A stretch of 40,963 bases of DNA from Promethearchaeota archaeon (GTDB lineage Archaea; Asgardarchaeota; Lokiarchaeia; Sigyniarchaeales; SOKP01), in contig JABXKD010000029.1 of assembly GCA_013375475.1 (NCBI GenBank), positions 1 through 40,963 of the forward strand. The letters run 5' to 3'. Made by a program: the position numbers and the translations under genes. Below, in pieces: positions 6,957 through 40,963 of the stretch. Below the pieces are notes generated by a model. That model ran no database searches. It saw nothing but the letters and a program-made list of their open reading frames with translations, and was not told the origin of the DNA. Every line of letters begins with the position of its first letter. Position 1 is the stretch's first letter.

Positions 6957-7889
6957 ATGAAATATGTTTATGGACCTGTTCCTAGCAGACGATTAGGGAG
7001 GTCTTTAGGAATTGACCCTATTCCTTCAAAAACATGCGATTATCAGTGTATATATTGTCAATTGGGAAAAACGACTAATTTTACTAGTGAGAGAAAAAAT
7101 TTTTATCCCTTAGAAGAAATTTACGAAGAAATTGAACAAAGTATTAACAAAAATAAAGGGGAGTTTGATTACATAACCTTTGTAGGTAGTGGTGAACCTA
7201 CCTTATGCAAAAGTTTAGGAAAACTGATTTTGAAAGCAAAGGAATTATCTAAAAAACCGATTTGTGTAATTACTAATGGTAGTTTATTATACCAAGACGA
7301 TGTAAAGGATGATCTTATCTTTTCTGACGTTGTTTTACCAACATTAGACGCAGGAGATGAAAAATTATTCATTAAAATTAATCGTCCTCATCCCTCCATC
7401 AAATATGAAAAAATAATTCAGGGTTACATTGATTTTCGGAAAGAATTTAACGGTAAATTTTGGATAGAAATAATGGTAATGAAGGGAATTAACGATTCTA
7501 GGGAAGAGTTATTTAAGATTAAAAAGAAGATAGATTTGATTCAACCCGATAGAATTGATATTAATGTTCCAATAAGACCTCCTACTGAAAGTTGGGTGAA
7601 AATTCCCGACCAAGATGTAATACCAATCCTAAACGATATTTTTGGAGATTATAATAATATAAACTTTCCTGAACAAGGAACATTTAGTGTTTTTGGTTTA
7701 AATTTTGAAAAGGAATTAAAGACTTTACTTGAAAGGCATCCAATGAGACTAGAACAAATTACTGAAACATTTAGTTCAAAAGCGGTTAATGAGCAAGATT
7801 TATTAGATCAATTGAATACTCTAGCATCCCAGAATAAGATTAAAAAAGTAATTTACAATAACCAGACTTTTTGGAAATTAACTAATTAA
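6957..7889 (+). CDS. Radical SAM Fe-S oxidoreductase (COG0731-like), possible C-terminal winged helix
   Basis: YGPVPSRRLGRSLGID, CDYQCIYC (CxxxCxxC), GSGEPTL, ITNGSLL. Confidence 0.9.
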   Translation: MKYVYGPVPSRRLGRSLGIDPIPSKTCDYQCIYCQLGKTTNFTSERKNFYPLEEIYEEIEQSINKNKGEFDYITFVGSGEPTLCKSLGKLILKAKELSKKPICVITNGSLLYQDDVKDDLIFSDVVLPTLDAGDEKLFIKINRPHPSIKYEKIIQGYIDFRKEFNGKFWIEIMVMKGINDSREELFKIKKKIDLIQPDRIDINVPIRPPTESWVKIPDQDVIPILNDIFGDYNNINFPEQGTFSVFGLNFEKELKTLLERHPMRLEQITETFSSKAVNEQDLLDQLNTLASQNKIKKVIYNNQTFWKLTN

Positions 7890-8884: not shown

Positions 8885-11284
8885 CTAAAATTTGTTTTCT
8901 AATCTATCTATAATGTCGTTTTGGATTGGAATTCCTAAATCAATAAAAGTAGCGTTATACCCTCCAACTTTCACGATTAAATCTGCGTAATTTTCAGGAT
9001 GGATCTGTGCATCCTTTAAAGTTTCGGTTGAAACCACATTTGGTTGAATCTGCATCCCCCCTTTATCAAAATATGTTTTTAACAAGTAATAGAACTTTTC
9101 GATATTTTCTTGAGTTTCTAAGTTTTGGGGATGTAATCGCACATTAACAGCTACTCCATTCATAGCGTAATCGTAATTTAATTTTGCGATTGAATTCAAT
9201 ATTGCGGTGATTCCGTTCTTTTCAACTTTATTCACGGGAGATAAACTGTTTGAGATGGGTCTTCCTGCTTTTCTCCCATCAGCTGATGGTCGAGTTAAAA
9301 TACCTTCCATTACATGGATGCCCATTGAGTAAGCTCCCGCATTATATCGTCCTCCCCTTAAAGGTTTATTCTTCCTTACCTCTTGTGTAAATAAATCCCA
9401 TAATTCAATAGCAAAGGAATCAATCTCAGCACCATCGTTCCCCCACTTTTCGTAATTATTAATTAATTTTTGGCGGTAAACTTCATTATCTTCAAAGTTT
9501 GAATTGAGAATACTTATAAGATCTGGTAAAGTCATTGACTTTTCGTCGTAAACGACTTTTTTAATGTTATACATAGAATCAACTAAAGTAGCAAACCCAT
9601 AAGCAGTAATCGAAGAATAATTATATTTTGCCCCTCCACATACGTAATCTTTCCCACTTTCCAAGCATCCATCAAGCGTAGCAGACACAATCGGGTGTTG
9701 AAAATAGTTCATCACTACTCTATCCCCTACTTCGGCAATCTTCACAGATTTTTCAATGTTAAATTTAAGCTGCCGTGTAAAAGCGTCGTAAAATTGATCG
9801 TATGTGATAAACTCTCCTGGATTACCTGTCTGTAAACCATCAATATTCTTTGAGAAATTGCTATATCCATTGTTTAAAGTTAATTCTAACACTCCTGGTA
9901 AATTAATGAACATCCTAGCTGTTGCTGAAAAACTGTTTCCTTGACCGGTGGGCTCCACACATCCAATTATAACGTAATTCTGGGCGTCTTCTAGGGAATA
10001 ACCGGTATTTTGAAGCGCGGGAACTATAATTTCATCGTTATAAAAAGCGATACCTGAAGTGTGTTTAAAAACTTTAATCGCGTTTTCAAAGAATTCTCTT
10101 GGAGTTTTCTTATGAATTCTAACTGAAAGATCAGTAGTAAAAACCTTTACTTTCTTATATGCTTCAAGAAAAAGGTAAGATAACTCATTTGTTGCGTCTT
10201 TGCCATTTGAATCCATACCAGCAATAGTAATTGTTTGTGTGTTTTGACCAAGAGCGTTAGCTACTAAAGTAAAGTCTGTAGGTAATATTGTAATGTTCCA
10301 AGTTAATTTTAAATTGAGTTCTTCTATTAATTCTAACGCGTCTTCTCTATCAATTTTCCCGTTTTTAAGATCTTGAAAATAGTAAGGCCAGAGAATTTGA
10401 TCTAATCGACCAAGGGCCACAACACTTCGCTGGTAAGTAATATTTATGATATTTTGAGTAAAATTTATGAGTTGAACTGCCTCGTAAAAAGTTTCTGGGG
10501 TAGTTTCGGTAAGTTTTTTCAACATAGCTCCGATAATTTCAAGCTCTTTTTTCCGTTTTTCGTTGTTTTGAGTTTCTGCCATTTCAAGAGAAAGTGTTGA
10601 AAACCTTTGCAAAAACTCTATAGCAGCTCTGTAATAAATTTTAACAGCTTCGTAGAAGTTATATTTTTCTTGAAATTCTTTATCCACTTTCTCTAAGCGG
10701 GATTGAAATGATTCAGCTTCCTCAATAATTCCTCTATATCCAAGTTTTAAAAGCTTTTCGTAGCCAGCGCATAAATGTCCTTCTGTCGTTCCAATTTGAA
10801 CGGACACATTTGGAGCTAAGGAAGTGATTTTCCCCTCTCCTGTGACCAGTTCTTCTTCCCGTAATTTCTTACTAATACGACCTTCTAATAGCGATTTTTT
10901 TCTCCAAAATGGGATCATTTCGAGTAACTCATCAATCTCCGGCTCGTCGATAAAAAATGGTTGAAGTTTTCTTCTTCTTAGCTTCTTATATGTTGATCTC
11001 TTCTCTAAACTGTTATCATAGCGTTGAAAATCGAGATTGATTTTTTCGCCTAAATTTTTGCTCGTTTCGTTTCCAACCAGTAATTCATCGTCTCTAATAA
11101 AAATGGTCATATTTTTTAGAGTGCGTGCTATAGATTTCGCTCTCTTAATGATTTCGGGATCGTCTGGATATTGTTTATAAATCTCAGTGAAAAATCTCAT
11201 GCGTTCGATACACAATTCATACTTGCTTGATAGCATGTTATTTTTGAGATTATTTATCCGTTTGGAAGGAGTTTTAATAATCAA
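8885..11284 (-). CDS. Glycyl radical enzyme (PFL2/eliminase-like), substrate unknown
   Basis: ELLVG, LGRLDQ, DATNELSY, active-site GCVEP, KWGND, ADGR, LKDAQxHPENYxDLIVKVGGY. Confidence 0.93.
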   Translation of the reverse strand: MIIKTPSKRINNLKNNMLSSKYELCIERMRFFTEIYKQYPDDPEIIKRAKSIARTLKNMTIFIRDDELLVGNETSKNLGEKINLDFQRYDNSLEKRSTYKKLRRRKLQPFFIDEPEIDELLEMIPFWRKKSLLEGRISKKLREEELVTGEGKITSLAPNVSVQIGTTEGHLCAGYEKLLKLGYRGIIEEAESFQSRLEKVDKEFQEKYNFYEAVKIYYRAAIEFLQRFSTLSLEMAETQNNEKRKKELEIIGAMLKKLTETTPETFYEAVQLINFTQNIINITYQRSVVALGRLDQILWPYYFQDLKNGKIDREDALELIEELNLKLTWNITILPTDFTLVANALGQNTQTITIAGMDSNGKDATNELSYLFLEAYKKVKVFTTDLSVRIHKKTPREFFENAIKVFKHTSGIAFYNDEIIVPALQNTGYSLEDAQNYVIIGCVEPTGQGNSFSATARMFINLPGVLELTLNNGYSNFSKNIDGLQTGNPGEFITYDQFYDAFTRQLKFNIEKSVKIAEVGDRVVMNYFQHPIVSATLDGCLESGKDYVCGGAKYNYSSITAYGFATLVDSMYNIKKVVYDEKSMTLPDLISILNSNFEDNEVYRQKLINNYEKWGNDGAEIDSFAIELWDLFTQEVRKNKPLRGGRYNAGAYSMGIHVMEGILTRPSADGRKAGRPISNSLSPVNKVEKNGITAILNSIAKLNYDYAMNGVAVNVRLHPQNLETQENIEKFYYLLKTYFDKGGMQIQPNVVSTETLKDAQIHPENYADLIVKVGGYNATFIDLGIPIQNDIIDRLENKF

Positions 11285-22276: not shown

Positions 22277-24901
22277 GTGAAATTAATGAGAAAAAATAAT
22301 AAAAAAATAATTTGCTTTTTAATGATTTGCTTTCTAACACTTGGAATATTTAATTTTGGAAATCAATCTTCAAGAGTTCTTGAATTAAGAGAAGATTTTC
22401 TTCAACCTAAGACCGCTGATACAGATCTAAAGGTTGCGATTTTAGATTCTATTTCTTCTCCTTCTTATGCAACAGGTGGTTACAATAATGATTTCGCGAG
22501 CATATATAATGGATTAATCTCTAATGGAGTTGACGCAATAAATATCACAAATGCTGATATCCTCGCAGGTATTTTAGAAACCGTTGATGTTCTAGTGTTA
22601 ATAGACAATTTGCCAAGTGATGCTGCTTCGGCAATTGTTAAGGATTGGGCTCTTTATGGAGGCGGCATACTCTCTTTCGATAGTAGTATTGCATTTTTGA
22701 ATTGGGCGGGAATCATACCGCCAGAAGCAGATGGAGCAAATGGGCAACTCACATATTGGGATTATATTTCCCCAGATGAAGGGATAGTAGTTAATGATGG
22801 ACACCCAGTTATGAATGGTTATAATTATGGAGATAATGTTAGTGGGATGGCAGGTGATTCTGCATATTTTTCAGATGGGATTATGATGTCTTCTGCAGGA
22901 CCTTATTATACTCCCTTAGTAAAAGAAGATCTTAGTAGTAATTACGATCTGGTAGTTGCTTTAGACGCCCCCTATTGCGGGAGAGTTGTTCACATTTGGG
23001 ATCGAGACCATTGGAATACCATCTCCAATCAACAAATGATTCTAAATGGGATCAATTGGATCAGAGAAAAATTTACAGACGTACCTCAAACTATAATTCT
23101 TAATGAGGTAAATATTGGCGATCCTGATTGGCTCGAACTTTATAACTTTGGACCCAGTACAAACATGACGGGATGGTCTATACTGATGTATTCTAATAAT
23201 GTTCTTGATGTTAATTACACTTTCCCTGATGGATGGATGTTTAATTCTCACCATGTAGTAGTTTTACATGAGGGTAGTGGAACCGATACGAGTACAGATT
23301 TATATATGGGAACAAGTGTTTATTGGATGAGTGAACCTCTAGCAGTCGGTCTTTTTGACGACACGAATGCAAATATTGATTGGTTCCAAACATTTGATCA
23401 CATATTGACCCTTCCTGGTGATGCTGTATGGATCAATGATACAATTATAGATTTAGTTAATAATGCTAATGAGGATGCTCACCGAAAAAATGATATAGAC
23501 ACGAATAGAGCCTCTGATTGGATCTTGTCAACTAGTGGTTCGAGTGGTTCATTGAATTTTGGGCAAAGAGGATATTTCTTCCCATTTCAAACAATTACTG
23601 GACCGGTTGCCATTTTTCAGGATGTATATCCTTGGGATTATAACTCAACCGATGAAATTTTAGCTTTGTATGGTATTTCGTATGACATTTACGATTCATT
23701 AGATTTTGGATTAGTAGATCTTTCACCTTATCAGAAAGTCATTATTTCATCATATCAAAGTCAGACCTTTTATGATAGGTTGAATGGATATGTATCCTGG
23801 TTTGAAAGTTACGCTGCAGGTGGGGGTATTCTTGAAATTCATGCATGTGATAGTCCTTCGGGAGACCAATGGCACGATACTTATTCGATGCCTGGGGGTT
23901 TAGACGCCACAGAATTAATTCTTGACGATGTAGATATTAATTTAGCTCAACATCCGATTATATTGAATCCTCACACTGTTAATGATACAGCTCTTGATAG
24001 TTGGAGTGCTTCTGCTCATGGATATTTCGATACATTTCCAGATCCTCATAGAGAGATATTACAACACACAGCTACATCCATGCCTATTTTGTTAGAATTT
24101 GAATATGGGAATGGATACATAGTTGCGAGCATGCAAGCACTCGAACATGCGTATCATTATGGAGATGTTGGATCTGAGGTATTTGAAAATATTATTCTAT
24201 ACGATCCATCATCTACTTATTTTTCTGATACTCTCACTGTGGAAACTCCTAATAGTCTAAGTTCATGGCATACGGATACTTCACATGATATCGAATGGGT
24301 TACCACAGGTAATGTTCCTAATGTCAAAATTGAGCTGTATAGAGGTGGTGTTTTTGAATTGGAGATTACTGCAAACATTACAAATGATGGCGAATTCTCT
24401 TGGTCTATCCCTTTAAGTCTAATTGATTCTACTCAATATCAAATTAAAGTTACTGATGTTTCCAATCCCTCTACATATGATTATAGCCAATATTTTGAAA
24501 TATACAACCCCACACTTACTGTGACATCTCCTGATATCTCAAGTACATGGATAAGGGGTACAGAAAATACTATCAGTTGGACTTCAACGGGAATTCTTAC
24601 AAATGTGAAAATTGACCTATTTTTGAATGATACCTTTATGTTAGAAATTATCGCAAGTACGCCCAATGACGGAGATTATAATTGGACATTACCATCAGAT
24701 CTTGATCCTTCTACTCTATACCAAATAAAGTTAACTGATAGCTCTAATGCTTTAATTTACGATTTTAGTGAATATTTTGAAGTTACTATTCCAGGCAACG
24801 GACCTACTCCAGGAATTCCAGGTTATAATCTGGTGATATTCATAGCATCATTAGTAGGAGTTTCTATACTACTTCTAAAAAAGAAACTAAAAACCAAATA
24901 A
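22277..24901 (+). CDS. Multidomain surface glycoprotein with lamin-tail-like domain, two Kre9/Ser-Thr-rich Ig-like repeats and Loki-CTERM-like anchor
   Basis: Basic + hydrophobic signal peptide; IILNEV...DWLELYN; two LTVxxP....W......I.W...G...NVKIxL......NDGxxxW repeats; IPGYNL + TM + KKKLKTK. Confidence 0.85.
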   Translation: MKLMRKNNKKIICFLMICFLTLGIFNFGNQSSRVLELREDFLQPKTADTDLKVAILDSISSPSYATGGYNNDFASIYNGLISNGVDAINITNADILAGILETVDVLVLIDNLPSDAASAIVKDWALYGGGILSFDSSIAFLNWAGIIPPEADGANGQLTYWDYISPDEGIVVNDGHPVMNGYNYGDNVSGMAGDSAYFSDGIMMSSAGPYYTPLVKEDLSSNYDLVVALDAPYCGRVVHIWDRDHWNTISNQQMILNGINWIREKFTDVPQTIILNEVNIGDPDWLELYNFGPSTNMTGWSILMYSNNVLDVNYTFPDGWMFNSHHVVVLHEGSGTDTSTDLYMGTSVYWMSEPLAVGLFDDTNANIDWFQTFDHILTLPGDAVWINDTIIDLVNNANEDAHRKNDIDTNRASDWILSTSGSSGSLNFGQRGYFFPFQTITGPVAIFQDVYPWDYNSTDEILALYGISYDIYDSLDFGLVDLSPYQKVIISSYQSQTFYDRLNGYVSWFESYAAGGGILEIHACDSPSGDQWHDTYSMPGGLDATELILDDVDINLAQHPIILNPHTVNDTALDSWSASAHGYFDTFPDPHREILQHTATSMPILLEFEYGNGYIVASMQALEHAYHYGDVGSEVFENIILYDPSSTYFSDTLTVETPNSLSSWHTDTSHDIEWVTTGNVPNVKIELYRGGVFELEITANITNDGEFSWSIPLSLIDSTQYQIKVTDVSNPSTYDYSQYFEIYNPTLTVTSPDISSTWIRGTENTISWTSTGILTNVKIDLFLNDTFMLEIIASTPNDGDYNWTLPSDLDPSTLYQIKLTDSSNALIYDFSEYFEVTIPGNGPTPGIPGYNLVIFIASLVGVSILLLKKKLKTK
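24227..24787 (+). repeat. Two tandem ~94-aa domain repeats within the surface protein
   Basis: DTLTVETP...STQYQIKVTD...YDYSQYFEI versus PTLTVTSP...STLYQIKLTD...YDFSEYFEV. Confidence 0.85.
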
Positions 24902-29872: not shown

Positions 29873-32800
29873 TTAATCTTTAAGACCTTTTTCTTCTAGT
29901 AAAGAATCTAAATCTGTCTCTTGTTTGTCTTTTTCCTCGACTTCAGTTTTTTTAGATTTCTTTTTACTTAGTTTTTTAGCTTTCTTAGCTGGAATTTCTT
30001 CTAACTTTTCTTCCGGTTCTTCAGCGGGTAGTTCACTCACCGATACGTATTTCCCTTTTCTTGGTCTGGCTTTTATTGGTTCTTCGAAAGGAGTTTCAAT
30101 TTTCTTGATTGTTTTTCTAACATACATATACATAATTGCCCACACTATCACGAAAATACCAATCATTATTAAAGTAAAAAAGCCGAACACTAAATCTTCA
30201 AGAAGAGGGGCGTAGATGTCAAATATCTTAGAGTTTTGAAAAATTACTTCTTCTTGAGTTACTTCGTTTCTTGCTCCAATAGATACTGAAATGCTCATTT
30301 GATTGATGGTTAGGACATTTATTTTTATCAAAATCTTCGTCGCATCTCCAGGTTTAAATTGTGCTAATGCCAAATAATCTATCTGCACAATACTATAAGT
30401 TAAAGAAGGAGATATATCAATAGAAATATCGGGGATTGACACATTGAGCTCAGAATCACCTACATTAGTTAATAATATCTGTATTGTCGATGGTTTGTTT
30501 TTATAAATCTGATCTACATTCGAAATTATCCGTAATGATATGTTGTTAAATGCTCTAAACATAGGGACAGTAATATTATGCGAAATAGCTGAGGTATATT
30601 GATCCCCTTGCCAGGTTAATCGTAATTTGAACTCATCTTCACTTGGTAACAATAAGGTATCGATTTCAAAATTTGTTGTTCCATTAATACCCGAGATTTG
30701 ACTCGAGAAGTTTTCCCATATGTCATTATTTAAGTATTGGAGTGAAACATTTTTGTTAGGGATTTCAGCGCCAAGCTCAGTAGTTAAAACAGAACTGACA
30801 TTAAATTTTTGCCCGTAAATAGGTGTATTGGGGGCGATATCGATGTTTGAGAATTTACTATTAATTTTCAAGGAGAAGGATTCAATGAATTGATTATAAC
30901 TGCTAACGAAATTTTTATCAAATATATTTATTACAAATGTTGTTTGGTTTGGCAGGTATAAACATTCGTCTCTCTCGAAAGGTTTTAATATTGAAGCTCC
31001 TGTAATGTCTCTGTTTACTTTCAAAGCAATTAAATAGCCTTCAAACTCAGATTGTGTACTATTTATGAGTAAGGCATAATCGTTACTCTCAAAAGTATCA
31101 ACTTTATGACTTTCTCCACCGTATTCAAAGAAAATGGTAAACTTAGTTTTGACTCCTCCTTTTCGTATTGGTGCATTAACACCTTTCCAAATTCCATCTC
31201 CTAAAAGTGTTGGTATTGTAAGATCAACAAAGAAATCCTGCGAATCAGCACCATTAGGATCAATACTAGGTTTTAGTTTTTTAATCCCCGTAGTTTTTTC
31301 AGCAATTATCCATTCTTCATTAACTAAAGATACCAATTGAACTTTGATTTTTACTTTTAATTCGAGAAATCCATGTAAATTACGAATTCGCGTACCAATT
31401 CTAATATCTTCATTAGGGTTCAAGATAGTTTCATTCTGCAAAAAAGTTTCAACTAATATCGGTATTTGTTCATTGTTTATTCTATATATAAATTCTTGAT
31501 CAACACTAGAGTCATTAATGGCGTAAAATTTGGGGTAATACTTATCATCGGTAACATTCACAGAACCTATTAATATTGAATATTCATTGAAGACTCTATC
31601 TACTATTCCATCTAGGACATTTTGGTCGAATTTTGGTTCGTAAAAGAAATCGTTCATCTCGATATCGTAAGTATCGATGTATAACTTAAGCTTACTGCAT
31701 CCAATTGAGGAACCATTTTCCCAGAAGAAACCTAAATAGTAGTTTCCAAGAAGGGGAATATCTTGGGTAACATCTAGAATTGTTTGATTGTTAAAATCAT
31801 ATATAAGATGAGTACCATCGACTACTCCAACTCCAGAATTCATTTCAGCTCCAGGAAATTTGGTGCTATTATCAGGATAAAATAAAATTACATTTGCGTT
31901 TCCCGTAGAAGGTAGTGTACCACCAGGACCTTGAATGTCTAACTTAACAGAGATATTATCTCCATACATGAAACCATTTGTCTCCCATAATATGTCGTTA
32001 TAGTTGATGTAACTATGCATGCCATCAATGAAATTACTACTAGTTAAAGCCAGAGAGTAAATTCCGCTTTTACCATTAATAATGTAATCAGGAACTGCTG
32101 TAAAATCGTAGGAGGGCCTGGAGAGTAAGCTGCGCTCTCCTCCCGTTTTGTTTACAACTTCAGCGTATATATCGTCATAAAAAGGACTAGGATTTGTTAA
32201 ATTGTGCGCATTATAATCGTTCGGATAAACAAACCAAAATTCTTGAAAAGTCCAATCGTTTAAGTTAGCATCTGCAAGGTTTAGCGTGAAATTTAACTGC
32301 CATTCGGGATCAATATCATACGATACATTATAATAACTAATTGCGTTTTCTATCCAATACGCCTTTACAGTATAGCTTACATTGAATTCAAATCCTTTTA
32401 TAATGCTTGTATTCCAAGAAAGGTCAATTGGGAAATTAAACGATCCGTCATTAACTATAGGCGTTGTAAAACTATTATTCCATAGTCCTAAACCCCATGT
32501 TAACGAAGAGCTCTCATCGTAAGGAGGGTCGCTAATAACGCTATTATTTAACGCAATATCTTGGATTCTTAATGTGTCTTGATTATTATAAGGATTTATA
32601 AAGTCTGAAGGCACATATGCCCTAGTTACATTTAATTTAAACGCTGCAGCATCCAATTTTTCTGACTGATAGAGCGGTGACGAGAGTACTTGTTTCTCGG
32701 CGACATTCCACGTAAATCCGTTATTAATAGAAGTTCTTAATTGATGGTCAATTGTCTCCTCGGGATCGCCATAAGTTTGTCTCGGTAGCGTTACTAAGCT

Positions 32801-34078
32801 GTATATTTCTTCAGTACGGTTTGATTTTATTACTATGAAGTAATTGTAAAGTTTTAGATTTTGAGTGTTCGCGAGATTAAATTCGAAGTATGTTAAGGAA
32901 TCTCCATGGTATTCGTTAAAACCAACGATCTTAGAATCGATTAACTTAGCACCATCGGGTTTCAGATTATTTGAAGCTAAATTTGCTTGAGTTCGTGCTA
33001 TAGTATCGTTTGCTTCATACAGCGTTATATTTAATTCTGCATTCACAGCTTCGTTTAGGTCCAAAGTTCTAATCCACGCATAGAAACCGTTTACTGTAGA
33101 ACTTTTACCTTTTAAATCAAACTCTAAAGCCACTTGTTTGCTATCGGAAATTGGTAAGTCAAATCCGTAGTTAGACGCTAGCTCGAATTCTCTTAGCAGA
33201 AGGATAAAATCAGGAGTATCGTATTTTTGGAGGTAAAATTGTATTTGACTAACATCAGAGGTGTTAATGTAGTTTAGATTTTCGTTGACGAATCGGTCTT
33301 CAAACTGTTGAGTACCTAAACTGCTATTTATAAACATCCTATCAGTTACATTTATCCAAGTTGAGTCAGAAATATCTAGCATTTTCAACGTTAAAAAAGC
33401 ACTACTATTAAGGCTACTCGTAAATCTTGAAATTAAACCTAATATTAAGTCTCTATCGAAATTCAAATCGAATAAAGATCCATCATAGATAGTACCAGCA
33501 AAATTTGAGGAAATTGTAAAATTCAGTATACCACCTAAAGATTCTAATTGTATGTAAGTAGCTAAGTTGCCATCGACTAAATCATTAAAATTTTTTGAAG
33601 GAGGTTCAATTCCTGTGTTAACACTCATAGCCGATGTATCTTCATCATAAACAAATTTTATAAAATCATCTGCATACAACGCGTCAGTGTCTTCCATTAT
33701 ATAATCTGTGGTATAATTATTCTGAAATTCGAAGTTAAAATTACCATATGTTAGGTATGTTGTATCTGTAGTTGACATAGAAGGAATGTCAAAAGATGCT
33801 TGATTATTAATGTTAGATGAGGAACTATTTACCGCGTAGATTCTAACATCTTGATTGACTCCTGAACCCGTAATATAGTAATCTGTTAGATACGGGTCAA
33901 TATCAGAAGACTTAATATTATTATCGTCATTTAACCAATTTTGTTCTTGGTTATTACTTATATCAAAATTAAAATTACTAAAAAGCTGAATATTTGCTAA
34001 CAGCATAGAGATCATAAATATGCTGGCCACTACAATTCTTTTAACATCCTTTTTTCGTCGTTGAATCAAAAAAACCAA
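29873..34078 (-). CDS. Large (1401 aa) membrane-anchored surface glycoprotein of unknown function
   Basis: N-terminal signal/TM, Asn/Ser/Thr/aromatic beta-rich ectodomain with many NxS/T sequons, C-terminal TM and Lys/Glu-rich tail. Confidence 0.85.
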   Translation of the reverse strand: MVFLIQRRKKDVKRIVVASIFMISMLLANIQLFSNFNFDISNNQEQNWLNDDNNIKSSDIDPYLTDYYITGSGVNQDVRIYAVNSSSSNINNQASFDIPSMSTTDTTYLTYGNFNFEFQNNYTTDYIMEDTDALYADDFIKFVYDEDTSAMSVNTGIEPPSKNFNDLVDGNLATYIQLESLGGILNFTISSNFAGTIYDGSLFDLNFDRDLILGLISRFTSSLNSSAFLTLKMLDISDSTWINVTDRMFINSSLGTQQFEDRFVNENLNYINTSDVSQIQFYLQKYDTPDFILLLREFELASNYGFDLPISDSKQVALEFDLKGKSSTVNGFYAWIRTLDLNEAVNAELNITLYEANDTIARTQANLASNNLKPDGAKLIDSKIVGFNEYHGDSLTYFEFNLANTQNLKLYNYFIVIKSNRTEEIYSLVTLPRQTYGDPEETIDHQLRTSINNGFTWNVAEKQVLSSPLYQSEKLDAAAFKLNVTRAYVPSDFINPYNNQDTLRIQDIALNNSVISDPPYDESSSLTWGLGLWNNSFTTPIVNDGSFNFPIDLSWNTSIIKGFEFNVSYTVKAYWIENAISYYNVSYDIDPEWQLNFTLNLADANLNDWTFQEFWFVYPNDYNAHNLTNPSPFYDDIYAEVVNKTGGERSLLSRPSYDFTAVPDYIINGKSGIYSLALTSSNFIDGMHSYINYNDILWETNGFMYGDNISVKLDIQGPGGTLPSTGNANVILFYPDNSTKFPGAEMNSGVGVVDGTHLIYDFNNQTILDVTQDIPLLGNYYLGFFWENGSSIGCSKLKLYIDTYDIEMNDFFYEPKFDQNVLDGIVDRVFNEYSILIGSVNVTDDKYYPKFYAINDSSVDQEFIYRINNEQIPILVETFLQNETILNPNEDIRIGTRIRNLHGFLELKVKIKVQLVSLVNEEWIIAEKTTGIKKLKPSIDPNGADSQDFFVDLTIPTLLGDGIWKGVNAPIRKGGVKTKFTIFFEYGGESHKVDTFESNDYALLINSTQSEFEGYLIALKVNRDITGASILKPFERDECLYLPNQTTFVINIFDKNFVSSYNQFIESFSLKINSKFSNIDIAPNTPIYGQKFNVSSVLTTELGAEIPNKNVSLQYLNNDIWENFSSQISGINGTTNFEIDTLLLPSEDEFKLRLTWQGDQYTSAISHNITVPMFRAFNNISLRIISNVDQIYKNKPSTIQILLTNVGDSELNVSIPDISIDISPSLTYSIVQIDYLALAQFKPGDATKILIKINVLTINQMSISVSIGARNEVTQEEVIFQNSKIFDIYAPLLEDLVFGFFTLIMIGIFVIVWAIMYMYVRKTIKKIETPFEEPIKARPRKGKYVSVSELPAEEPEEKLEEIPAKKAKKLSKKKSKKTEVEEKDKQETDLDSLLEEKGLKD

Positions 34079-34230
34079 CCGTTATTATCAATATTTTAGT
34101 TATTAAATAATTTAAGAATATTAAAATTTGCCAATTTATATTAAATTTATTCGATAGATTACTAAATGACAAGATATTCAGATTATTAGTACATAAAAAA
34201 AATAAAATATGAAGATGGTTAAATTAGATT

Positions 34231-35589
34231 ATGAGGGAAGAATTAATTATAGATAAAATTGAACAAGAAAAAGAAGAATACATCGAATTCTTTAGGAAAC
34301 TTGTCCAAAGCGACTCTATAAATCCACCTGGGAATGAAAAGAATGTTGCTTTAATTATTGATGATTTCTTGAAAGCGATAGGAGTGAAAACCGAAATTTT
34401 CTCATTTGGAAATAACCGTGCCAATTTAGTAGCGTATTTAAATGATTCTTTTGATGGCCGAAATTTGTTATATAATGGACATATGGACACTGTTCCTCCC
34501 GGTTCCGAAGAAGATTGGAAATACTCCCCATTATCGGCTTTGATAAAGCGTAATAAGCTTATGTTTGGCAGAGGTACTACTGATATGAAAGGAGGCTTAG
34601 CTGCTATGGTTATTGCATTAAAAATTTTAAAAGAGTTAAAAATGGAAGTTGCGGGAAACTTAATTTTAAACGCCGTGGCTGACGAAGAAACAGGGGGAAA
34701 ATTTGGAACTGGTTGGTGCGTAGATAACCCTCTAAAGGAGATAAAATGTGATTTTGCAATCATTGGCGAAGCTACAGGTCTTAACCCTCTTCCAAAAGCA
34801 ATACTTGTAGGGGAAAAGGGACATCTTCAAATAAAAATAACTACAAATGGGATTTCTGGTCATTCTGGAATGCCCGCGATGAGTAAAAATGCAATCTATA
34901 TGATGAGCGAGATCATTGAGAAATTAGATAAACTCGAGAAGTATATTCCTAAAACCAAACCACCAATAGAATTAGATAAACTTAAAAGATTAGTTGGAGT
35001 GTCATTTCCAAGCGAGGAAATTTTTGAAAGAATTATGAAGGAACAACCTGATTTAGATAGCGTTCTTCAATCTCTAACATCCTTTTCTAAAGCACTAACG
35101 ATGATTAAAGGAGGAATAAAAGTAAATGTTATTCCAGACTCTTGTGAAGCAGTCCTCGATGTCAGGCTTTTACCCGAACAAAAGAGTGAACCCATTTTAA
35201 TGGCTTTAAAAAAACTGATCGAAGAAGATGTTGGGTATGTAGTAAAAGATCAATCAAACGATACTTCCAGCCAAATCTTTGTTGAGCTCCAAGTAATTAC
35301 CGACTCTGAAGGATCTTATTGGAGTGAATGGGAGGAATCAAGCGATCTAAAAGAATTTTACGAACTTGTTGAAATGGTTTACGAAAAAAAGCCCTTTTAC
35401 TTTCTATTACCTGCATCTGCAGATGCACATTTTTTACGTAACAAAGGTTATTGCCCCCAGACTATTCTCTTTGGACCCGGTCGAGGAAGAACTGCCCATG
35501 CAGCTGATGAATTCATCGAAATTTTAGATTTTATTCGAGCCATCAAAGTTTATGCGATCTTTGCTTATAGATTTCTAACTAAAAAATAA
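34231..35589 (+). CDS. M20 family metallopeptidase/deacylase (ArgE/DapE-like)
   Basis: NPPGNE, NGHMDTVP, GRGTTDMKGG, DEETGG, GE, GHS, NVIPD, AHAADE. Confidence 0.93.
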   Translation: MREELIIDKIEQEKEEYIEFFRKLVQSDSINPPGNEKNVALIIDDFLKAIGVKTEIFSFGNNRANLVAYLNDSFDGRNLLYNGHMDTVPPGSEEDWKYSPLSALIKRNKLMFGRGTTDMKGGLAAMVIALKILKELKMEVAGNLILNAVADEETGGKFGTGWCVDNPLKEIKCDFAIIGEATGLNPLPKAILVGEKGHLQIKITTNGISGHSGMPAMSKNAIYMMSEIIEKLDKLEKYIPKTKPPIELDKLKRLVGVSFPSEEIFERIMKEQPDLDSVLQSLTSFSKALTMIKGGIKVNVIPDSCEAVLDVRLLPEQKSEPILMALKKLIEEDVGYVVKDQSNDTSSQIFVELQVITDSEGSYWSEWEESSDLKEFYELVEMVYEKKPFYFLLPASADAHFLRNKGYCPQTILFGPGRGRTAHAADEFIEILDFIRAIKVYAIFAYRFLTKK

Positions 35590-35701
35590 AGAAATATAGG
35601 CTAAAAAACTATATAGCATAAATAATTAGAATAGAAATTTATTTAAGACCTTTTTATTTTAATACCTTTAAATTCATTGATGATTTTATAGAAACAAGAA
35701 A

Positions 35702-36886
35702 GTGCAAGATTTAGTAAAAATAGAAGACTGCGTAATTCTTATAGATTCCTCAAGATCTATGGTAAGGAAAGATTTCAAACCTAATCGACTAGGAGTTGCA
35801 TTAGAAACCGCAAAAAGGTTTATTCACGAGAAATTCCTAATAGATCCCAAGGATCGTATAGCGATATTCTCGTTTGGGGCAAATATTGCTAAATTGAGCC
35901 CATTTAGTTTCGAAAAAGATAAATTAGTAGAAGCTTTAAGCCGAATTCATATTTCAGGGAAAGGATCGCTTGACGAGGGTCTCGCATTTTCACTTCAATT
36001 TTTAGTTGGAGAGATGCGAAAGTTAGGAGGTAGAACAAGTAGGATTTTCATTATCTCTGACAATAAACTAGAATATAGTGATAAAATCCACAAAATTGTT
36101 GAGATAGCAAAAGGTTTGGGAATTTACATTGACGCGTGTCAATTAGGGAAAACTGAAGACCACTCACAGAGTATCTTAAAAAACCTAGCTAAAAATACTG
36201 GAGGTCAGTATGGTTTTTTTAACAATTCAAAAGCGTTATTAAATGCTGGAGCCTCTTATGCTTCAAAAAAAGAACTTAAAGATTCTACCGATTATTTTGA
36301 TCCTGCTAAAAAAAGCGACATAGCCCCTTTAATTAGCGAGATTGCTTTACAACTTAGGAGACCAAACGTACTCGATATTCGTCTAATGATGAGCAATAAA
36401 GAACGAGGTCAAGAAAAATGTCAAATTTGCCATTCAGTGAAAGCCCAAATTACAGGAGCCGATTTTTATAGCGAGGGACGCTACTGTCCATCTTGTGAGA
36501 GACCAATGCATCTTTCTTGCGTCGCTATGTGGGCAAAGAAGACAGAATATAGGGAAAATGTATTCAGATGTCCATTTTGTTATTTCTTGTTAGAACTCCC
36601 TGCCAGTGCGTCAAAGTTAGTTGAAGAAAAGGTTGAATTAGAAGAGCCTAAAATAAAATTAATTGATGAGAGCGGGATAAATGTCACAAAAATGACTCAA
36701 ATTCAGGAATCTGAAATCGGTAAAATCGACGCTTCATGTACACTTTGCCATAGCATATTTTTAGGCGACTATAACGTATTTCAATGCGATAAATGTGGAG
36801 CGTACTACCACGAACCGTGTTTAAATAAAATGCATAACGAAATCAATGCGTGTAGAAATTGTGGTGCTCAAATCACTTTAAAATAG
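35702..36886 (+). CDS. vWA domain protein with two C-terminal RING/PHD-like zinc fingers (TFIIH p44/Ssl1-like)
   Basis: IDSSRSM...DFKPNRL, DP, TSR, LAKNTGGQY; CQIC..CPSC..H..C..CPFC and CTLC..CDKC..H..C..CRNC. Confidence 0.8.
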   Translation: MQDLVKIEDCVILIDSSRSMVRKDFKPNRLGVALETAKRFIHEKFLIDPKDRIAIFSFGANIAKLSPFSFEKDKLVEALSRIHISGKGSLDEGLAFSLQFLVGEMRKLGGRTSRIFIISDNKLEYSDKIHKIVEIAKGLGIYIDACQLGKTEDHSQSILKNLAKNTGGQYGFFNNSKALLNAGASYASKKELKDSTDYFDPAKKSDIAPLISEIALQLRRPNVLDIRLMMSNKERGQEKCQICHSVKAQITGADFYSEGRYCPSCERPMHLSCVAMWAKKTEYRENVFRCPFCYFLLELPASASKLVEEKVELEEPKIKLIDESGINVTKMTQIQESEIGKIDASCTLCHSIFLGDYNVFQCDKCGAYYHEPCLNKMHNEINACRNCGAQITLK

Positions 36887-36980: not shown

Positions 36981-39038
36981 GTGATCAATTTAACGAGTAA
37001 TCCAAAAGGTAAATGGGTTGTAACATCTGCATGGCCTTATGTAAATGCTACACCACATTTGGGCAATTTAATTGGAAGTACTCTATCAGCGGATGTGTTT
37101 GCAAGATTTTTGAGAATGAAGGGTGAAGATGTGGTTTTTGTTTCAGGATCAGATTCTCATGGAACGCCCATTTCTGTGGAAGCAAAAAGATCTAAAGTTC
37201 CGGCCAAAGAATTAGCTTTGAAATATCATAATATTATTAAAGACTTACACGAGAAATGGCAGATCTCTTTTGATAATTATACAATAACTCATAATCCTAC
37301 TCATATTGAATATGTAAAAAAGATGTATTTGGATATTCAAAAAAATGGATATGTAAAAGAAAAAGAAATTGAATCTCTCTATTGTGAAAATGATAACTTG
37401 TTCTTGCCTGATAGATTTGTAGAAGGTACTTGTCCTAACTGCAAAGATGATGGCGCCAGAGGAGATCAGTGTGATAAGTGCCAAAAAATCCTCACACCAT
37501 TAGAATTAATAAATCCAAGATGTGCAATATGTGGAAACACGCCTGTAAATAAGAAAACAAAACACTGGTACTTGAATTTACCTAAATTACAAGACCGATT
37601 GAAAAAATTGATTGATGAAAATGAAATAATCCCCCCTAATGCACGAAAAATGTGTTTAAATAGTATTGAAGAGGGACTACCAGAACGAGCAATTACACGA
37701 GATCTTGAATGGGGGATCCCTGCACCTTTCAAAGGCGCTGAACAAAAGACGATTTATGTATGGTTTGAAGCTGTATTGGGATATATTACCGCAGTGAAAG
37801 AATGGGCAGATAAAATTATCAAGGAACCCGATAGATTTGATTCCTTTTGGAAAGATCCTAATACGAAAACAGTCTATTTTATAGGGAAGGATAACATTAT
37901 ATTTCACTTAATAGTTTTTCCCGGTTTGTTGATTGCATATAATGAAGACAAAGTAGATAGTGAAAAACTTGTGTTGCCATATAATGTCTCCTCAACAGAA
38001 TGGTTGCTTTATGAGAATGAGAAACTTTCTAAATCTAGAGGAATTGGGATATGGATTGATGAGGCACTAGAATTAGCTCCCCTTGATTACTGGAGATTTA
38101 ATTTGTTATTTAATCGCCCAGAAACAAGTGACACATCGTTTTTATGGTCTGAATTTGAGAATAATATAAAAACTCTTAATGATAATATTGGTAATTTCAT
38201 CCATCGTACGTTAACTTTTATTGAAAAGCAATTTAATAATACTATTCCCCCGAAAATAGAATCTGTTGAATCTGATATAAAATTTATAGAGAAAATAAAT
38301 ACAATAAGCCTAATGGTGGGAGAGAGTTTACAAAACTTTAAAATAAGAAAAGCTATAAGAGATATCGTCAATTTTGGAAAAGAGGGGAATATATTTTTAA
38401 ATGAAAGAGCCCCTTGGCATTTGATCAAAGAAAATAAAGAAGCTGCCGGACATGTATTTAATATTTGTGCTCAAGCAGTGTATGCATTAGCGATTCTATT
38501 AGGTCCATTTATACCAGATACTTCGGAAAAGATATTATCATATTTAAATGCTCCAAAATTAAGTGAATTGTCATGGGATAGTATCAATGATGACTCGATA
38601 AAAGCAGGACAAAAAATCAAGAAACCCCAACCTCTTTTTCAAAAATTAGAGATTGGAGAAGTTAAAGAAGAATATAAAAAGTTAAAAGAAGGAAAACCCA
38701 AAAAAGGTGGTAAAGAATTGGTTTCATACGAAGAATTTAAGAAGCTCGATATACGAATAGCACTCATTGAGAGTGTAGAAAAGGTTCCTAAAGCAGACAA
38801 ATTGTATAAATTATCTATTGCTTTAGGAGACGAAAAGAGGACATTAGTTGCGGGTTTAGCTGAACAATATAAAGCAGACGAACTAAAAGGTAAAAAAATC
38901 GCAATACTTGCAAACTTGGAACCGAGAAAACTTAAAGGGATTCTAAGCGAAGGTATGCTTCTTGCTGCTGTTGATGGGAAAATCGTATCTGTTTTAACAC
39001 CTGATAAAGAAATCCCCTCAGGCGCAAAAGTAGAATAA
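36981..39038 (+). CDS. metG: Methionyl-tRNA synthetase with C-terminal tRNA-binding OB domain
   Basis: TSAWPYVN..PHLGN, GSDSHGTPI, zinc knuckles, ITRDLEWGIP, YVWFEA, IGKDNI.FH, KLSKS, FKKLDIR...NLEPRKLKG..SEGMLL. Confidence 0.98.
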   Translation: MINLTSNPKGKWVVTSAWPYVNATPHLGNLIGSTLSADVFARFLRMKGEDVVFVSGSDSHGTPISVEAKRSKVPAKELALKYHNIIKDLHEKWQISFDNYTITHNPTHIEYVKKMYLDIQKNGYVKEKEIESLYCENDNLFLPDRFVEGTCPNCKDDGARGDQCDKCQKILTPLELINPRCAICGNTPVNKKTKHWYLNLPKLQDRLKKLIDENEIIPPNARKMCLNSIEEGLPERAITRDLEWGIPAPFKGAEQKTIYVWFEAVLGYITAVKEWADKIIKEPDRFDSFWKDPNTKTVYFIGKDNIIFHLIVFPGLLIAYNEDKVDSEKLVLPYNVSSTEWLLYENEKLSKSRGIGIWIDEALELAPLDYWRFNLLFNRPETSDTSFLWSEFENNIKTLNDNIGNFIHRTLTFIEKQFNNTIPPKIESVESDIKFIEKINTISLMVGESLQNFKIRKAIRDIVNFGKEGNIFLNERAPWHLIKENKEAAGHVFNICAQAVYALAILLGPFIPDTSEKILSYLNAPKLSELSWDSINDDSIKAGQKIKKPQPLFQKLEIGEVKEEYKKLKEGKPKKGGKELVSYEEFKKLDIRIALIESVEKVPKADKLYKLSIALGDEKRTLVAGLAEQYKADELKGKKIAILANLEPRKLKGILSEGMLLAAVDGKIVSVLTPDKEIPSGAKVE

Positions 39039-39039
39039 T

Positions 39040-40284
39040 TTATAACTTCAAAGAAAATATTGGATTTAATCGAGCAATTATTTCGCCAAGCTCCAATTGG
39101 AGAGTTTTAAGTATCACATCTCTTCCTCTATACTCGAATTGTAATTCCTTTACATTGCGGATGATCTTTAATTTATTTCTAGCTTTTATTAATTCACAAG
39201 CAAAATATCTCTGGTCTTTATATTCTAATACTTTTTGTACTCGGCTTATGTCAGGTAACAAGTATCCCCCTCCGTGGGGCAACAAATTAGCGTTTGTTAA
39301 AAGGTCTTTCAATTCAAAATTTACTGCTCTTTCTAAGAAATCGTTATTTTTTAAGGTCGTTTCAGAAAAACTCTTTCGTCCTCTAAAAAGATAAGCTGCC
39401 AAGTCTGCTCGTAATGCGGTTGGGAAGATATCATTTGAGATAAAATCGCTTTGTACATCTGTACAGTTGCTTCCTAGGTACATATTATTGTAATCTTTTA
39501 AAAATTGATGGGGTGTATTACAAATTACCTTATAATCAGAACTGAACAGATTCATAGCAATTATCTCTCTTTTTAAATTTGAAAAGTTTATTGCCTTTTT
39601 GTTAAATTCAAAATATTCTTTAGCATCTGAGTCAAGTAGTATAAATTGATTTCCAAGTTCAGTAGGTTCCTTAATTGCATGATCAATTAAAGATTTTGAG
39701 CTGTCAATGTATAAGCCTATACCATAGCGATCATCGCGAAATTCTGGAGCAGAACCATGTATCATAAAAATATATGGAGGGAAATTTAGATCTGAGAGAT
39801 TTTTTGTTTCATAACAGTTAATGAAATGATTGGATATCCCATAATCCCAATTTATAAGAACTTCTCCACTGTATAATTCCATACTCTTTACATTGTCTAT
39901 TTCTTTTATGATCTCGTAAGCGTCTGGTAATTCTTCTAATCCTCCTACTAATATTCCGCAACAATTTGGTTTAATGTTCAAAAAAACAATTTTATCGCTC
40001 CCAGAACCCCAATTTAATCTCCCACCATAACCAAGTCCGGAATTCCATCTAAAATTATTCCTTGAAATCGTTTCATCTGGAGAAGATATAAAGGTAGCTT
40101 TAGGTTCAAATCCATATTTCTCTTGAATGAGGTGAAATTGAGCTAAACCATATTTCATATTCGCTTTACATAATTTCGAAGCACCATCATTCAAACCAGT
40201 AGAAAAAATGTAATCGTTTGCTCTTTGAAGTAGCTCTATTTTAGACAATTCAGAAATTTTATTGGATAACCTAATTGAACCCAT
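39040..40284 (-). CDS. Divergent RtcB-like protein (putative GTP/Mn-dependent RNA ligase fold)
   Basis: Ordered motifs SPD, PNCCG, GISNHFI, IHGS, PHQ, PHGGG correspond to RtcB PD, DxxCG, GNHF, HxGS, HN, HGAG. Confidence 0.65.
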   Translation of the reverse strand: MGSIRLSNKISELSKIELLQRANDYIFSTGLNDGASKLCKANMKYGLAQFHLIQEKYGFEPKATFISSPDETISRNNFRWNSGLGYGGRLNWGSGSDKIVFLNIKPNCCGILVGGLEELPDAYEIIKEIDNVKSMELYSGEVLINWDYGISNHFINCYETKNLSDLNFPPYIFMIHGSAPEFRDDRYGIGLYIDSSKSLIDHAIKEPTELGNQFILLDSDAKEYFEFNKKAINFSNLKREIIAMNLFSSDYKVICNTPHQFLKDYNNMYLGSNCTDVQSDFISNDIFPTALRADLAAYLFRGRKSFSETTLKNNDFLERAVNFELKDLLTNANLLPHGGGYLLPDISRVQKVLEYKDQRYFACELIKARNKLKIIRNVKELQFEYRGRDVILKTLQLELGEIIARLNPIFSLKL

Positions 40285-40372: not shown

Positions 40373-40963
40373 ATGAGCGACTCAGATAACAGAATACTAT
40401 TCGATTCATTAAAAGGGATACTATTGGAAGGTGTATTTGAAGGTTCAATAATTACACGGTGTAGAGATGACAACGACTCTATTATTTTCTCGGATAATCT
40501 AAAAATTTCAAGCTCAGAAGGTATTTTTATAACCGAAGGTTTTAGAGTAGGCTTCGAATTAAATTACAATAAAAAAATTGCCTTCTCTCGCAAGATTGAA
40601 GCTCAGTGGTACGAAGATTTTGAATCAATTGAATATTCAATATTAATTTCAGAAGATATAATGCAAATTTATGACGAAGGTCAGTTTTCAGACGCTTTTC
40701 CTTATACATTAAACAAACTCAATACGGCAGCTCTTTTTTTGGAAGATTATCAATATGGAATCAACCATTTAGATTTCTTTAAAGGAGAAATGCTTAGGAA
40801 TCCGGTAGCTGTTGTTGGAGACGGAGTTATCGTTGCAGATAGAGTGGTCATAGATGAAAGAATTGATCCTGTTTTTTATGATTGCTTAATTATTGGACGA
40901 GATGAAAAAGAAGATCTTTCGGTATCTTTTGAGCCCTATATGAACGTCAAGAAGTCGATAACC
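40373..40963 (+). CDS. Acidic hypothetical protein, 5' part (runs off the window end)
   Basis: Open frame of 197 codons from ATG 40373 (MSDSDNRILFDSLKGILLEGVFEGSII...) with no stop; divergent from the RtcB-like gene; absent from the track. Confidence 0.8.
   Translation, partial: MSDSDNRILFDSLKGILLEGVFEGSIITRCRDDNDSIIFSDNLKISSSEGIFITEGFRVGFELNYNKKIAFSRKIEAQWYEDFESIEYSILISEDIMQIYDEGQFSDAFPYTLNKLNTAALFLEDYQYGINHLDFFKGEMLRNPVAVVGDGVIVADRVVIDERIDPVFYDCLIIGRDEKEDLSVSFEPYMNVKKSIT

Follow-up and report, generated by a model that had tools for sequence, protein, structure and literature searches.

Does an Asgard archaeon encode a relative of p44/Ssl1, the TFIIH subunit that joins a von Willebrand factor A (vWA) domain to zinc fingers, or does the same order of modules serve a different purpose there? 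This question is raised by one gene in a 40,963-nucleotide (nt) stretch of DNA from a Promethearchaeota archaeon of the class Lokiarchaeia (contig JABXKD010000029.1 of assembly GCA_013375475.1), the whole of which is referred to below as the window. The gene, an open reading frame (ORF) of 394 amino acids (aa) on the + strand at 35702-36886 with a GTG start, is present in the ORF list and translation just as a first-pass annotation had described it. That annotation read the product either as a proto-TFIIH subunit or as a vWA-RING ubiquitin ligase (E3) close to the ancestor of p44 and the ubiquitin receptor Rpn10. In our alignment the orthologues begin at the same position as this GTG; an ATG upstream of it runs into a stop after three codons.

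Asgard archaea carry eukaryote-like systems composed of ubiquitin-activating (E1), ubiquitin-conjugating (E2) and RING E3 enzymes, and to our knowledge little has been established about which E3 enzymes they possess and what these act on. Our analysis leans slightly toward the window protein being a vWA-RING-RING E3 ligase, or an E3-like adaptor, of such an archaeal ubiquitin-like system, which would derive from an ancestor linked to a ubiquitin-type gene cluster and duplicated in the window's order. Overall, four observations argue for this interpretation: the second of its two fingers matches RING-H2 E3 ligases; the deepest orthologues lie beside JAB, E1-like and E2 genes; the finger ligands are kept across 22/22 relatives, with an Ile/Trp/Pro set in the first finger; and the genome holds the partners that such an enzyme would need, namely a ubiquitin-like (Ub-like) protein, E1, E2 and JAB. 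Thus, between the two proposals in the first-pass annotation, it is the ligase that gains support.

Conserved fingers and ubiquitin-type gene neighbourhoods

Both fingers are of the C4HC3 type, as had been pointed out before, and follow the pattern C-x2-C...C-x2-C-x4-H-x2-C...C-x2-C with eight ligands in cross-brace spacing. In an alignment of 22 diverse relatives of the window protein, which underlies all conservation figures given here, the eight ligands of finger 1 and W277 are invariant in 22/22 sequences, and I242 and P291 are conserved in at least 90%. The ligands of finger 2 are likewise invariant, with the exception of C346, which is conserved in at least 90%. We take I242, W277 and P291 to correspond to the residues through which RING domains touch the E2 in structures such as c-Cbl/UbcH7, namely an Ile or Val between ligands 1 and 2, a Trp after ligand 6 and a Pro between ligands 7 and 8. 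Finger 1 has this pattern; finger 2 has a Leu and then Met, Trp or Tyr, and lacks the Pro. When the two fingers were compared with each other using hhalign (E 1.1e-4, probability 57%), their ligands aligned one to one. The linker that precedes finger 1 is also conserved at K189/K190, A215, L218 and P221, and matched no Pfam family beyond a weak sub-cut-off match to DUF4171.

A profile of the finger region searched against the PDB placed RING-H2 E3 ligases first, on finger 2, with Arkadia at the top (30.3 bits, E 3.3e-6) and ARK2C/RNF165, RNF38, RLIM, RNF4, RNF13 and synoviolin behind it; more than 15 of the matches listed are annotated as RING E3 ligases. The second half of finger 1 together with the linker gave weak PDB matches to NSE1, EL5, SLX1 and FANCL. 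A Pfam scan of the window protein, which returned 16 families at E<=1, matched PHD on finger 1 (residues 240-293; 27.8 bits, cut-off 24), and on the finger 2 region (residues 343-388) it found Prok-RING_1, C1_1 and zf-RING_2, all below their cut-offs, along with a weak PHD_NSD match. Across the family, the members matching at E<=0.01 number 16/22 for zf-RING_2, 17/22 for Prok-RING_1, 17/22 for C1_1, 15/22 for PHD and 4/22 for zf-ANAPC11.

The genes that surround the deepest orthologues are of the ubiquitin type. Ubiquitin-system genes are present at 4/5 deep-branch genome loci (families of the class are numbered f1 to f7, with f1 being the window's own). Specifically, the vWA-RING gene is found with E1, E2, JAB, a small ThiF gene and a VTT-domain protein in L057 (G128, f7), with E2, JAB, small ThiF and a 197-aa membrane protein in L082 (G123, f5), with small ThiF and a 193-aa membrane protein in L081 (G124, f5), and next to JAB in L056 (G127, f6); L055 (G129, f7) has none of E1, E2, JAB or small ThiF. 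Among the deep-type metagenome loci, JAB (10) and/or small ThiF (4) adjoin the vWA-RING gene in 12/15, a count that is not independent of the genome loci as both may come from shared organisms, and the remaining 3/15 end on the side where JAB or ThiF is expected. An E2 gene lies within 3-8 kb of the vWA-RING gene in 2/15 of these loci, and a membrane protein of roughly 190 aa adjoins it in 12/15. This membrane protein (L082:5092-5682, L081:3263-3841 and metagenome loci L090-L102) has a multi-pass look, finds no match in Pfam, NCBIfam or PADLOC, and homologues of it are absent from the window's genome; its place in f7 is taken by a membrane protein with a VTT/DedA domain.

We found 393 homologues of the window protein at E<=1e-3, the best 120 of which are 61-93% identical to it. 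They bear product names such as "VWA domain-containing protein", "hypothetical protein" or RpoP- and YegL-like, and wherever a source name identifies an organism, that organism is an Asgard archaeon. A survey of 400 genomes of the phylum at E<=1e-5 found a match in 162 of them, including 159/160 other genomes of the window's class (f1 134/134, f2 1/1, f3 14/14, f4 4/4, f5 3/3, f6 1/2, f7 2/2). There was no match at this threshold in 237/239 Asgard genomes outside the class, and in the two outside genomes that did match, the listed places cover only the vWA domain, or only a finger in another ORF.

The window's own genome contains several members of the family. The window gene is a type A copy, and a full-length type B paralogue is located on contig C236 (24910-26124, - strand; phmmer 6e-60). 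Contig C55 carries two divergent tandem copies of 455 and 465 aa (33931-35298 and 35441-36838, both - strand), which match the query over the second half of the vWA domain and finger 1, with a weak second match at the C-terminal side of the 465-aa copy, and which sit on a very long branch (3.6) of the family tree. In addition, a protein encoded on contig C122 shares only finger 2. A quick maximum-likelihood tree of 37 rows, whose root on the "long" variants of 600-700 aa is an assumption, recovers a type A clade and a type B clade with Shimodaira-Hasegawa-like approximate likelihood ratio test (SH-aLRT) supports of 100 and 98, respectively, and places the single-copy f5-f7 genes (SH-aLRT 96) as sister to types A, B and C of the window's order (95). 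Since the f5-f7 genes are those linked to the ubiquitin-type cluster, type A appears to descend from a cluster-linked gene, and so rooted, the tree indicates that the window copy is a later duplicate that now lies upstream of metG.

The two main paralogue types have each settled in a constant position. In f1 the type A gene is part of a block with the order surface protein, M20 peptidase, vWA gene, metG and two unknown genes. Here the M20 peptidase is present at 9/10 f1 loci and at 0/10 loci outside f1, and metG follows directly downstream at 8/10 f1 loci, lying farther off in L047, with none found in L042. Position upstream of metG recurs in f3 (L076, L078) and f4 (L052, L053), which makes three families of the order in all. 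The earlier suggestion that this is a core, vertically inherited gene thus holds at the level of the class, given its near-universal presence there and the metG adjacency across three families. Type B genes are arranged head-to-head with a RagA/Gtr1-like GTPase of roughly 400 aa at 8/8 f1 loci, and also in f2 and f3. The same pairing is observed in 10/17 A/B-type metagenome loci; of the other seven, six have no more than 358 nt of upstream sequence and the seventh is of type A, with metG. This constant pairing suggests a functional link between the predicted RING-type protein and the Rag-like GTPase. The loci that show it are L058, L066-L071, L073-L075 and L077, and the GTPase orthologue of the window's genome is on contig C257 (248-1456, + strand).

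The window's genome, which is 100% complete by marker genes and is distributed over 288 contigs, has a candidate conjugation cascade on contig C37 (L059:67-6161) with genes for a Ub-like protein, a leucine-rich repeat (LRR) protein, E1, E2 and JAB; this contig ends about 170 nt past JAB, a second E1/E2 pair is located on contig C226, and a further E2 on contig C9. We considered a join of C37 to C236, where the type B gene stands at the contig end, and rejected it since type B genes have no nearby E1, E2 or JAB in 8/8 related loci, and since the upstream neighbour of type B is the RagA-like GTPase, whose orthologue starts C257. The E2 on C37 is highly conserved, with 61-93% identity in its best 120 matches including one source-named Heimdallarchaeota. 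Contigs C228, C273, C266 and C148 hold at least six more paralogues of the long JAB of about 480-500 aa, three of them clustered on C228; this is the type of JAB that neighbours the deep-type vWA-RING genes.

The interpretation that we favour would bring these elements together as follows. A cytosolic vWA-RING-RING protein, of a family spread across the whole class Lokiarchaeia, would bind its target through the vWA domain. Its two C4HC3 fingers would be cross-brace domains of the RING type, and by recruiting a charged E2 from the archaeal ubiquitin-like system through at least one of them, the protein would act as an E3 ligase or E3-like adaptor. The ancestor would have been a single-copy gene clustered with genes for a JAB deubiquitinase-like protein, a small ThiF/E1-like protein, an E2 and a small membrane protein. 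Following duplication in the window's order, type A would have settled upstream of metG, presumably keeping the ancestral activity outside the cluster, and type B would have settled head-to-head with the RagA/Gtr1-like GTPase. The family is present in nearly all genomes of the class and, if this is correct, would supply them with candidate E3s that carry their own protein-binding domain, and its three conserved contexts, namely the JAB/E1-like cluster with its membrane protein, metG and the Rag-like GTPase, would offer leads to its targets.

Relationships of the vWA domain

Pfam models on the window protein include VWA_2 (57.9 bits), Ssl1 (40.2 bits, cut-off 27, residues 14-172) and VWA (39.9 bits), and the NCBIfam vWA and BatA models match it only below threshold. 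D15, S17, S19 and D120, which we take to be the metal-ion-dependent adhesion site (MIDAS) positions of the domain, are invariant in the 22 relatives. A phmmer search of 177,635 PDB sequences returned human p44 first (E 2.4e-6, query residues 10-172 against p44 61-221), followed by S. pombe Rpn10 (1.4e-4) and yeast Ssl1 (3.3e-4). The motif pairs that the first-pass annotation had quoted from p44 are all present in the tool alignment: IDSSRSMVRKDFKPNRL / VDGSRTMEDQDLKPNRL, F..E.F..[DN]P, GRTSR / GHTSR and LAKNTGGQY / LARETGGTY.

A profile of the family's vWA domains scores S. pombe Rpn10 at 66.1 bits, human Rpn10 at 61.7 and human p44 at 56.8 in the PDB, with BatA/BatB-like proteins lower at 50.4, 43.4 and 40.5 bits and yeast Ssl1 at 31-34 bits. 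Searched against 1.84 billion representatives, this profile had 20,286 matches at E<=1e-3, of which 1,842 reached E<=1e-10, and right behind the family stood unnamed prokaryote-type vWA proteins at 83-115.5 bits. These have one of two architectures, either a stand-alone vWA protein of about 200-260 aa with the motif D-Y-P-P-S-R-L-E-A, or a BatA-type protein of about 310-335 aa with D-F-K-P-N-R-L-E-A, so that the earlier caveat that DFKPNRL also occurs in BatA-type proteins was well placed. Only 1/10 prokaryote-type vWA clusters checked had named members, which were Desulfurococcales. By bit score, the measure used here, the domain is therefore not closer to p44 than to prokaryotic vWAs (56.8 versus 83-115 bits), and the lead of p44 in the PDB search is explained by the absence of solved structures for the closest relatives. 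The first-pass annotation had held that a grouping with prokaryotic vWAs, away from Ssl1 and Rpn10, together with no interaction with XPD or an E2, would speak against its proposal, and as regards p44/Rpn10 kinship the findings come close to such an outcome.

As a control we used a profile of 51 ordinary prokaryotic vWAs, taken from the best matches of the family profile itself. It gives 83.3 bits for human and 79.3 for S. pombe Rpn10, 57.2 for human p44 and 51.1 for yeast Ssl1; the 140.9 bits obtained for the window protein are partly circular given how the profile was chosen. As the control profile matches p44 and Rpn10 as well as or better than the family profile does, the similarity is not p44-specific; judged by these profile comparisons, it is a property of the whole vWA neighbourhood rather than of the Asgard family. 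Thus, a best PDB hit to p44 is in this instance an effect of database composition, which calls for caution when eukaryotic signature proteins (ESPs) are claimed from such hits.

Other measures do set the family somewhat apart. The Pfam Ssl1 model exceeds its cut-off in 21/22 family members and reaches E<=1e-3 in 21/51 of the nearest non-family prokaryotic vWAs, Ku_N is matched by 8/22 members versus 3/51 of those vWAs, and Tfb4 by 4/22 versus 1/51. When whole proteins were compared by language-model features, the clusters nearest to the family's own were those of eukaryotic p44 (0.91, 9/30 matches). When the vWA domain alone was used, prokaryotic vWAs headed the ranking, Ssl1 being 8th and Rpn10 14th. 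The p44 likeness is thus gone with the vWA domain alone, indicating that the whole-protein likeness rests on the combination of this domain with the C-terminal fingers.

Rival readings and comparison with known systems

Several observations weigh against the E3 interpretation. The window copy adjoins no ubiquitin-system gene, its neighbours being the M20 peptidase and metG, and the type B paralogue is also without ubiquitin-system neighbours in 8/8 f1 loci; the deep-type clusters contain no ORF resembling the genome's own Ub-like protein (E<=1), and their counts suffer from the shared organisms mentioned above. In regards to the fingers, both zf-RING_2 (16.4 bits, cut-off 27.3) and Prok-RING_1 (PF14446; 23.9 bits on residues 343-380, cut-off 29.1) stay below threshold on the window protein, and in the alignment with Arkadia the Trp and Pro of the ligase are replaced in finger 2 by Leu/Met and Arg. 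For finger 1 on its own, the PDB yielded nothing significant, with a KMT2D PHD finger (E 0.085) and EL5 (0.14) coming closest, and Pfam assigns it to PHD, a reminder that such C4HC3 spacing is also possible in PHD-type peptide readers. Finally, the window copy has a Gly at the position aligned with the conserved Thr of GGxT, a consensus motif of prokaryotic vWAs, which makes metal-dependent ligand binding by its vWA domain uncertain.

The main rival is a non-catalytic reader or adaptor, which we judge to be clearly less probable than a ligase and still worth serious consideration. Its PHD/C1-like fingers would bind peptides, lipids or nucleic acid and its vWA domain would be a second binding module, such that the protein would be a scaffold or regulator for the JAB/E1-like system, or an Rpn10-like receptor for modified proteins, without any ligase activity. 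The over-cut-off PHD match of finger 1, the weak C1_1 and PHD_NSD matches of finger 2, the frequency of C1_1 and PHD among family members, and the ubiquitin receptor Rpn10 as best PDB match of the family vWA profile are all congruent with this role, as is the fact that the commonest deep-type neighbours are the membrane protein (12/15) and JAB (10/15), with E2 in just 2/15. Against it stand the RING-H2 E3 ligases as the only significant PDB matches of the fingers, the Ile/Trp/Pro of finger 1 at what we take to be the E2-contact positions, and the lack of a ubiquitin-interacting motif (UIM) or any other ubiquitin-binding family in the Pfam matches at E<=1. A generic BatA-like vWA protein, fused by chance to zinc ribbons and with no link to ubiquitin-type signalling, would fit the stand-alone and BatA-type proteins being the closest vWA relatives outside the family, and the sub-threshold BatA/VWA matches in NCBIfam. 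We regard this as improbable given the strict conservation, throughout the class, of two fingers with eight ligands each, and given that the JAB/ThiF/E2 neighbourhood recurs, and that the BatA N-terminal membrane domain (PF07584) has no match in the window protein, where the vWA domain starts at residue 8, or in the 22 members.

The proposal that brought attention to this gene, a proto-TFIIH p44/Ssl1 subunit whose vWA domain would bind and stimulate XPD and whose C-terminal finger would bind a p34-like partner, now appears very improbable as an account of the window protein. What can be said for it is the phmmer ranking of human p44, the excess of Ssl1, Ku_N and Tfb4 matches over prokaryotic vWAs, the nearness to eukaryotic p44 in whole-protein features, and the distribution of the Ssl1 model, which exceeds its cut-off in 153/400 Asgard genomes, all of the window's class and at loci of about 400 aa, with one weak match outside the class and none above the cut-off in 14 control genomes. 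The genome also encodes an XPD-like helicase of 657 aa (L063:6498-8468, contig C277), and the finger profile weakly matches a Chaetomium p44 C-terminal fragment (E 0.0066; full chain 0.12). The p44-like architecture claimed for the protein therefore stands as far as the vWA match is concerned. The claimed parallel between the terminal fingers does not, as finger 2 and the p44 terminal finger score -1.9 and -4.9 bits with HMMER, which is not significant, and share only spacing, identical from the third ligand on (C-x2-C-x4-[H/C]-x2-C-x10-C-x2-C). Spacing of this type is common to PHD/RING-type fingers. The p44 C4C4 "TFIIH C1-like" finger (PF07975) is absent from the Pfam matches of the window protein at E<=1 and matches 0/22 members at E<=0.01; a scan of the genome gave two chance-level matches elsewhere (best E 0.22) and none on the vWA-RING gene. 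Finger 1 with the linker likewise has no p44 match at E<=10. No vWA gene neighbours XPD, which is flanked by a glycosyltransferase and by a 293-aa protein unmatched in Pfam, and a Ras-type GTPase lies a little farther out. Tfb2/p52 (PF03849) has no match in the genome at E<=1, and the one match to Tfb4/p34 (PF03850) is sub-threshold (21.1 versus 27 bits) and falls on a paralogue's own vWA domain. Add to this the scores of the control profile and of the prokaryote-type vWAs, the prokaryotic ranking of the vWA domain alone, the restriction of the family to one class and an ancestral gene context that is ubiquitin-type and not repair, and a position near the p44/Rpn10 ancestor is not borne out.

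A different connection to TFIIH would run in the opposite direction, with the vWA and zinc-finger architecture of p44/Ssl1, and perhaps p34, descending from an Asgard vWA-RING E3 of this kind. The class restriction of the Ssl1 model, the language-model proximity to p44 and the spacing of finger 2 from the third ligand on lead to this idea, which we consider a long shot. If true, TFIIH p44 would be a domesticated ubiquitin ligase, the E3 activity reported for Ssl1 would be a relic, and the confinement of the family to one Asgard class would reflect loss elsewhere.

Returning to the E3 interpretation, the window protein can be set beside systems that are already known. Like the small RING E3s of Asgard archaea (Prok-RING_1), it is predicted to have binuclear RING-type fingers; those E3s are clustered with E1, E2 and JAB, just as the deep-branch vWA-RING orthologues lie beside E1-like, E2 and JAB genes, and Prok-RING_1 is common to them and 17/22 family members at E<=0.01. 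Unlike the small E3s with their one RING, the window protein has about 394 aa, an N-terminal vWA domain and two tandem C4HC3 fingers, is encoded outside the cluster and matches Prok-RING_1 only below cut-off. With p44/Ssl1 (GTF2H2) it shares the module order of vWA then zinc fingers, nearly the same length (394 aa versus 395 aa for human chains), the motif D-x-S-R-[ST]-M...D-[FL]-K-P-N-R-L and an over-cut-off Ssl1 match. It differs from p44 in lacking a match to the C4C4 finger, in a genome where the other TFIIH core subunits were not found, and in the ubiquitin-type context of its family. In p44 the middle finger is of the C4 type with a single zinc, as opposed to a binuclear C4HC3 finger in the window protein, and yeast Ssl1 has been reported to have E3 activity. 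Rpn10/PSMD4, which is functionally tied to ubiquitin, is what the family vWA profile matches best in the PDB, along almost the full domain; it has no RING fingers, whereas the window protein has two and no UIM (Pfam E<=1), and it is scored still higher by the control prokaryotic profile (83.3 bits). The BatA-type and stand-alone prokaryotic vWAs, the top relatives outside the family, share D-x-S-x-S-M-x3-D-[FY]-x-P-[NS]-R-L with it; in contrast, they have membrane anchors (BatA N-terminal domain in 9/51) or no extra domain, and Prok-RING_1 is found in 2/51.

Our literature search found no description of this vWA-RING family; supplementary Asgard ESP and asCOG catalogues, which were outside the search, may list it. 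In vitro reconstitution of an Asgard E1-E2-RING E3 cascade, from a Helarchaeial source, has been achieved using another E3, a small RING protein, and the accessible part of that text contains neither "vWA" nor "von Willebrand" (bioRxiv 10.1101/2023.07.25.550441). A 2026 structural-clustering preprint includes RING E3 ligases among its Asgard ESP clusters and, in its accessible part, makes no mention of TFIIH or vWA. A published Asgard vWA operon is, from the portion available, different from the vWA-RING family.

Feature coordinates and other genes of the window

Coordinates of the vWA-RING gene, its domains and its two flanking genes within the window.
Feature	Position	Strand	Basis
Whole gene: vWA + two C4HC3 fingers, type A paralogue, 394 aa	35702..36886	+	ORF list, translation
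vWA domain, about residues 8-190	35723..36271	+	Pfam VWA_2, Ssl1, VWA
Conserved linker, residues 191-239	36272..36418	+	Alignment of 22 relatives
Finger 1, residues 240-293: C240-x2-C243-x18-C262-x2-C265-x4-H270-x2-C273-x16-C290-x2-C293	36419..36580	+	Alignment; Pfam PHD
Finger 2, residues 346-387: C346-x2-C349-x12-C362-x2-C365-x4-H370-x2-C373-x10-C384-x2-C387	36737..36862	+	Alignment; family finger profile
metG, methionyl-tRNA synthetase with C-terminal tRNA-binding domain, downstream neighbour	36981..39038	+	Pfam tRNA-synt_1g 486 bits
M20-family peptidase, upstream neighbour	34231..35589	+	Pfam Peptidase_M20 107.8 bits

The window gene thus stands between the M20 peptidase and metG. PADLOC defence models found no match in the four proteins of this analysis to which they were applied. 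Beyond metG, the synteny block continues with a 414-aa gene (39040-40284, - strand) that is present in 7/10 f1 loci and a 197-aa gene (40373-40963, + strand) present in 6/10, neither of which has a Pfam or NCBIfam match.

Elsewhere in the window, a 1401-aa protein without a Pfam match (29873-34078, - strand) has a C-terminal membrane-anchor-like stretch followed by a Lys/Glu-rich tail, and an 874-aa protein (22277-24901, + strand) carries domains of the Kre9/KNH-like and lamin-tail types; the two proteins are probably located at the cell surface. A pyruvate-formate-lyase-like glycyl-radical enzyme (8885-11284, - strand) is encoded near a radical-SAM protein (6957-7889, + strand), and NifU-like and FeMo-cofactor-family genes are located near this pair.

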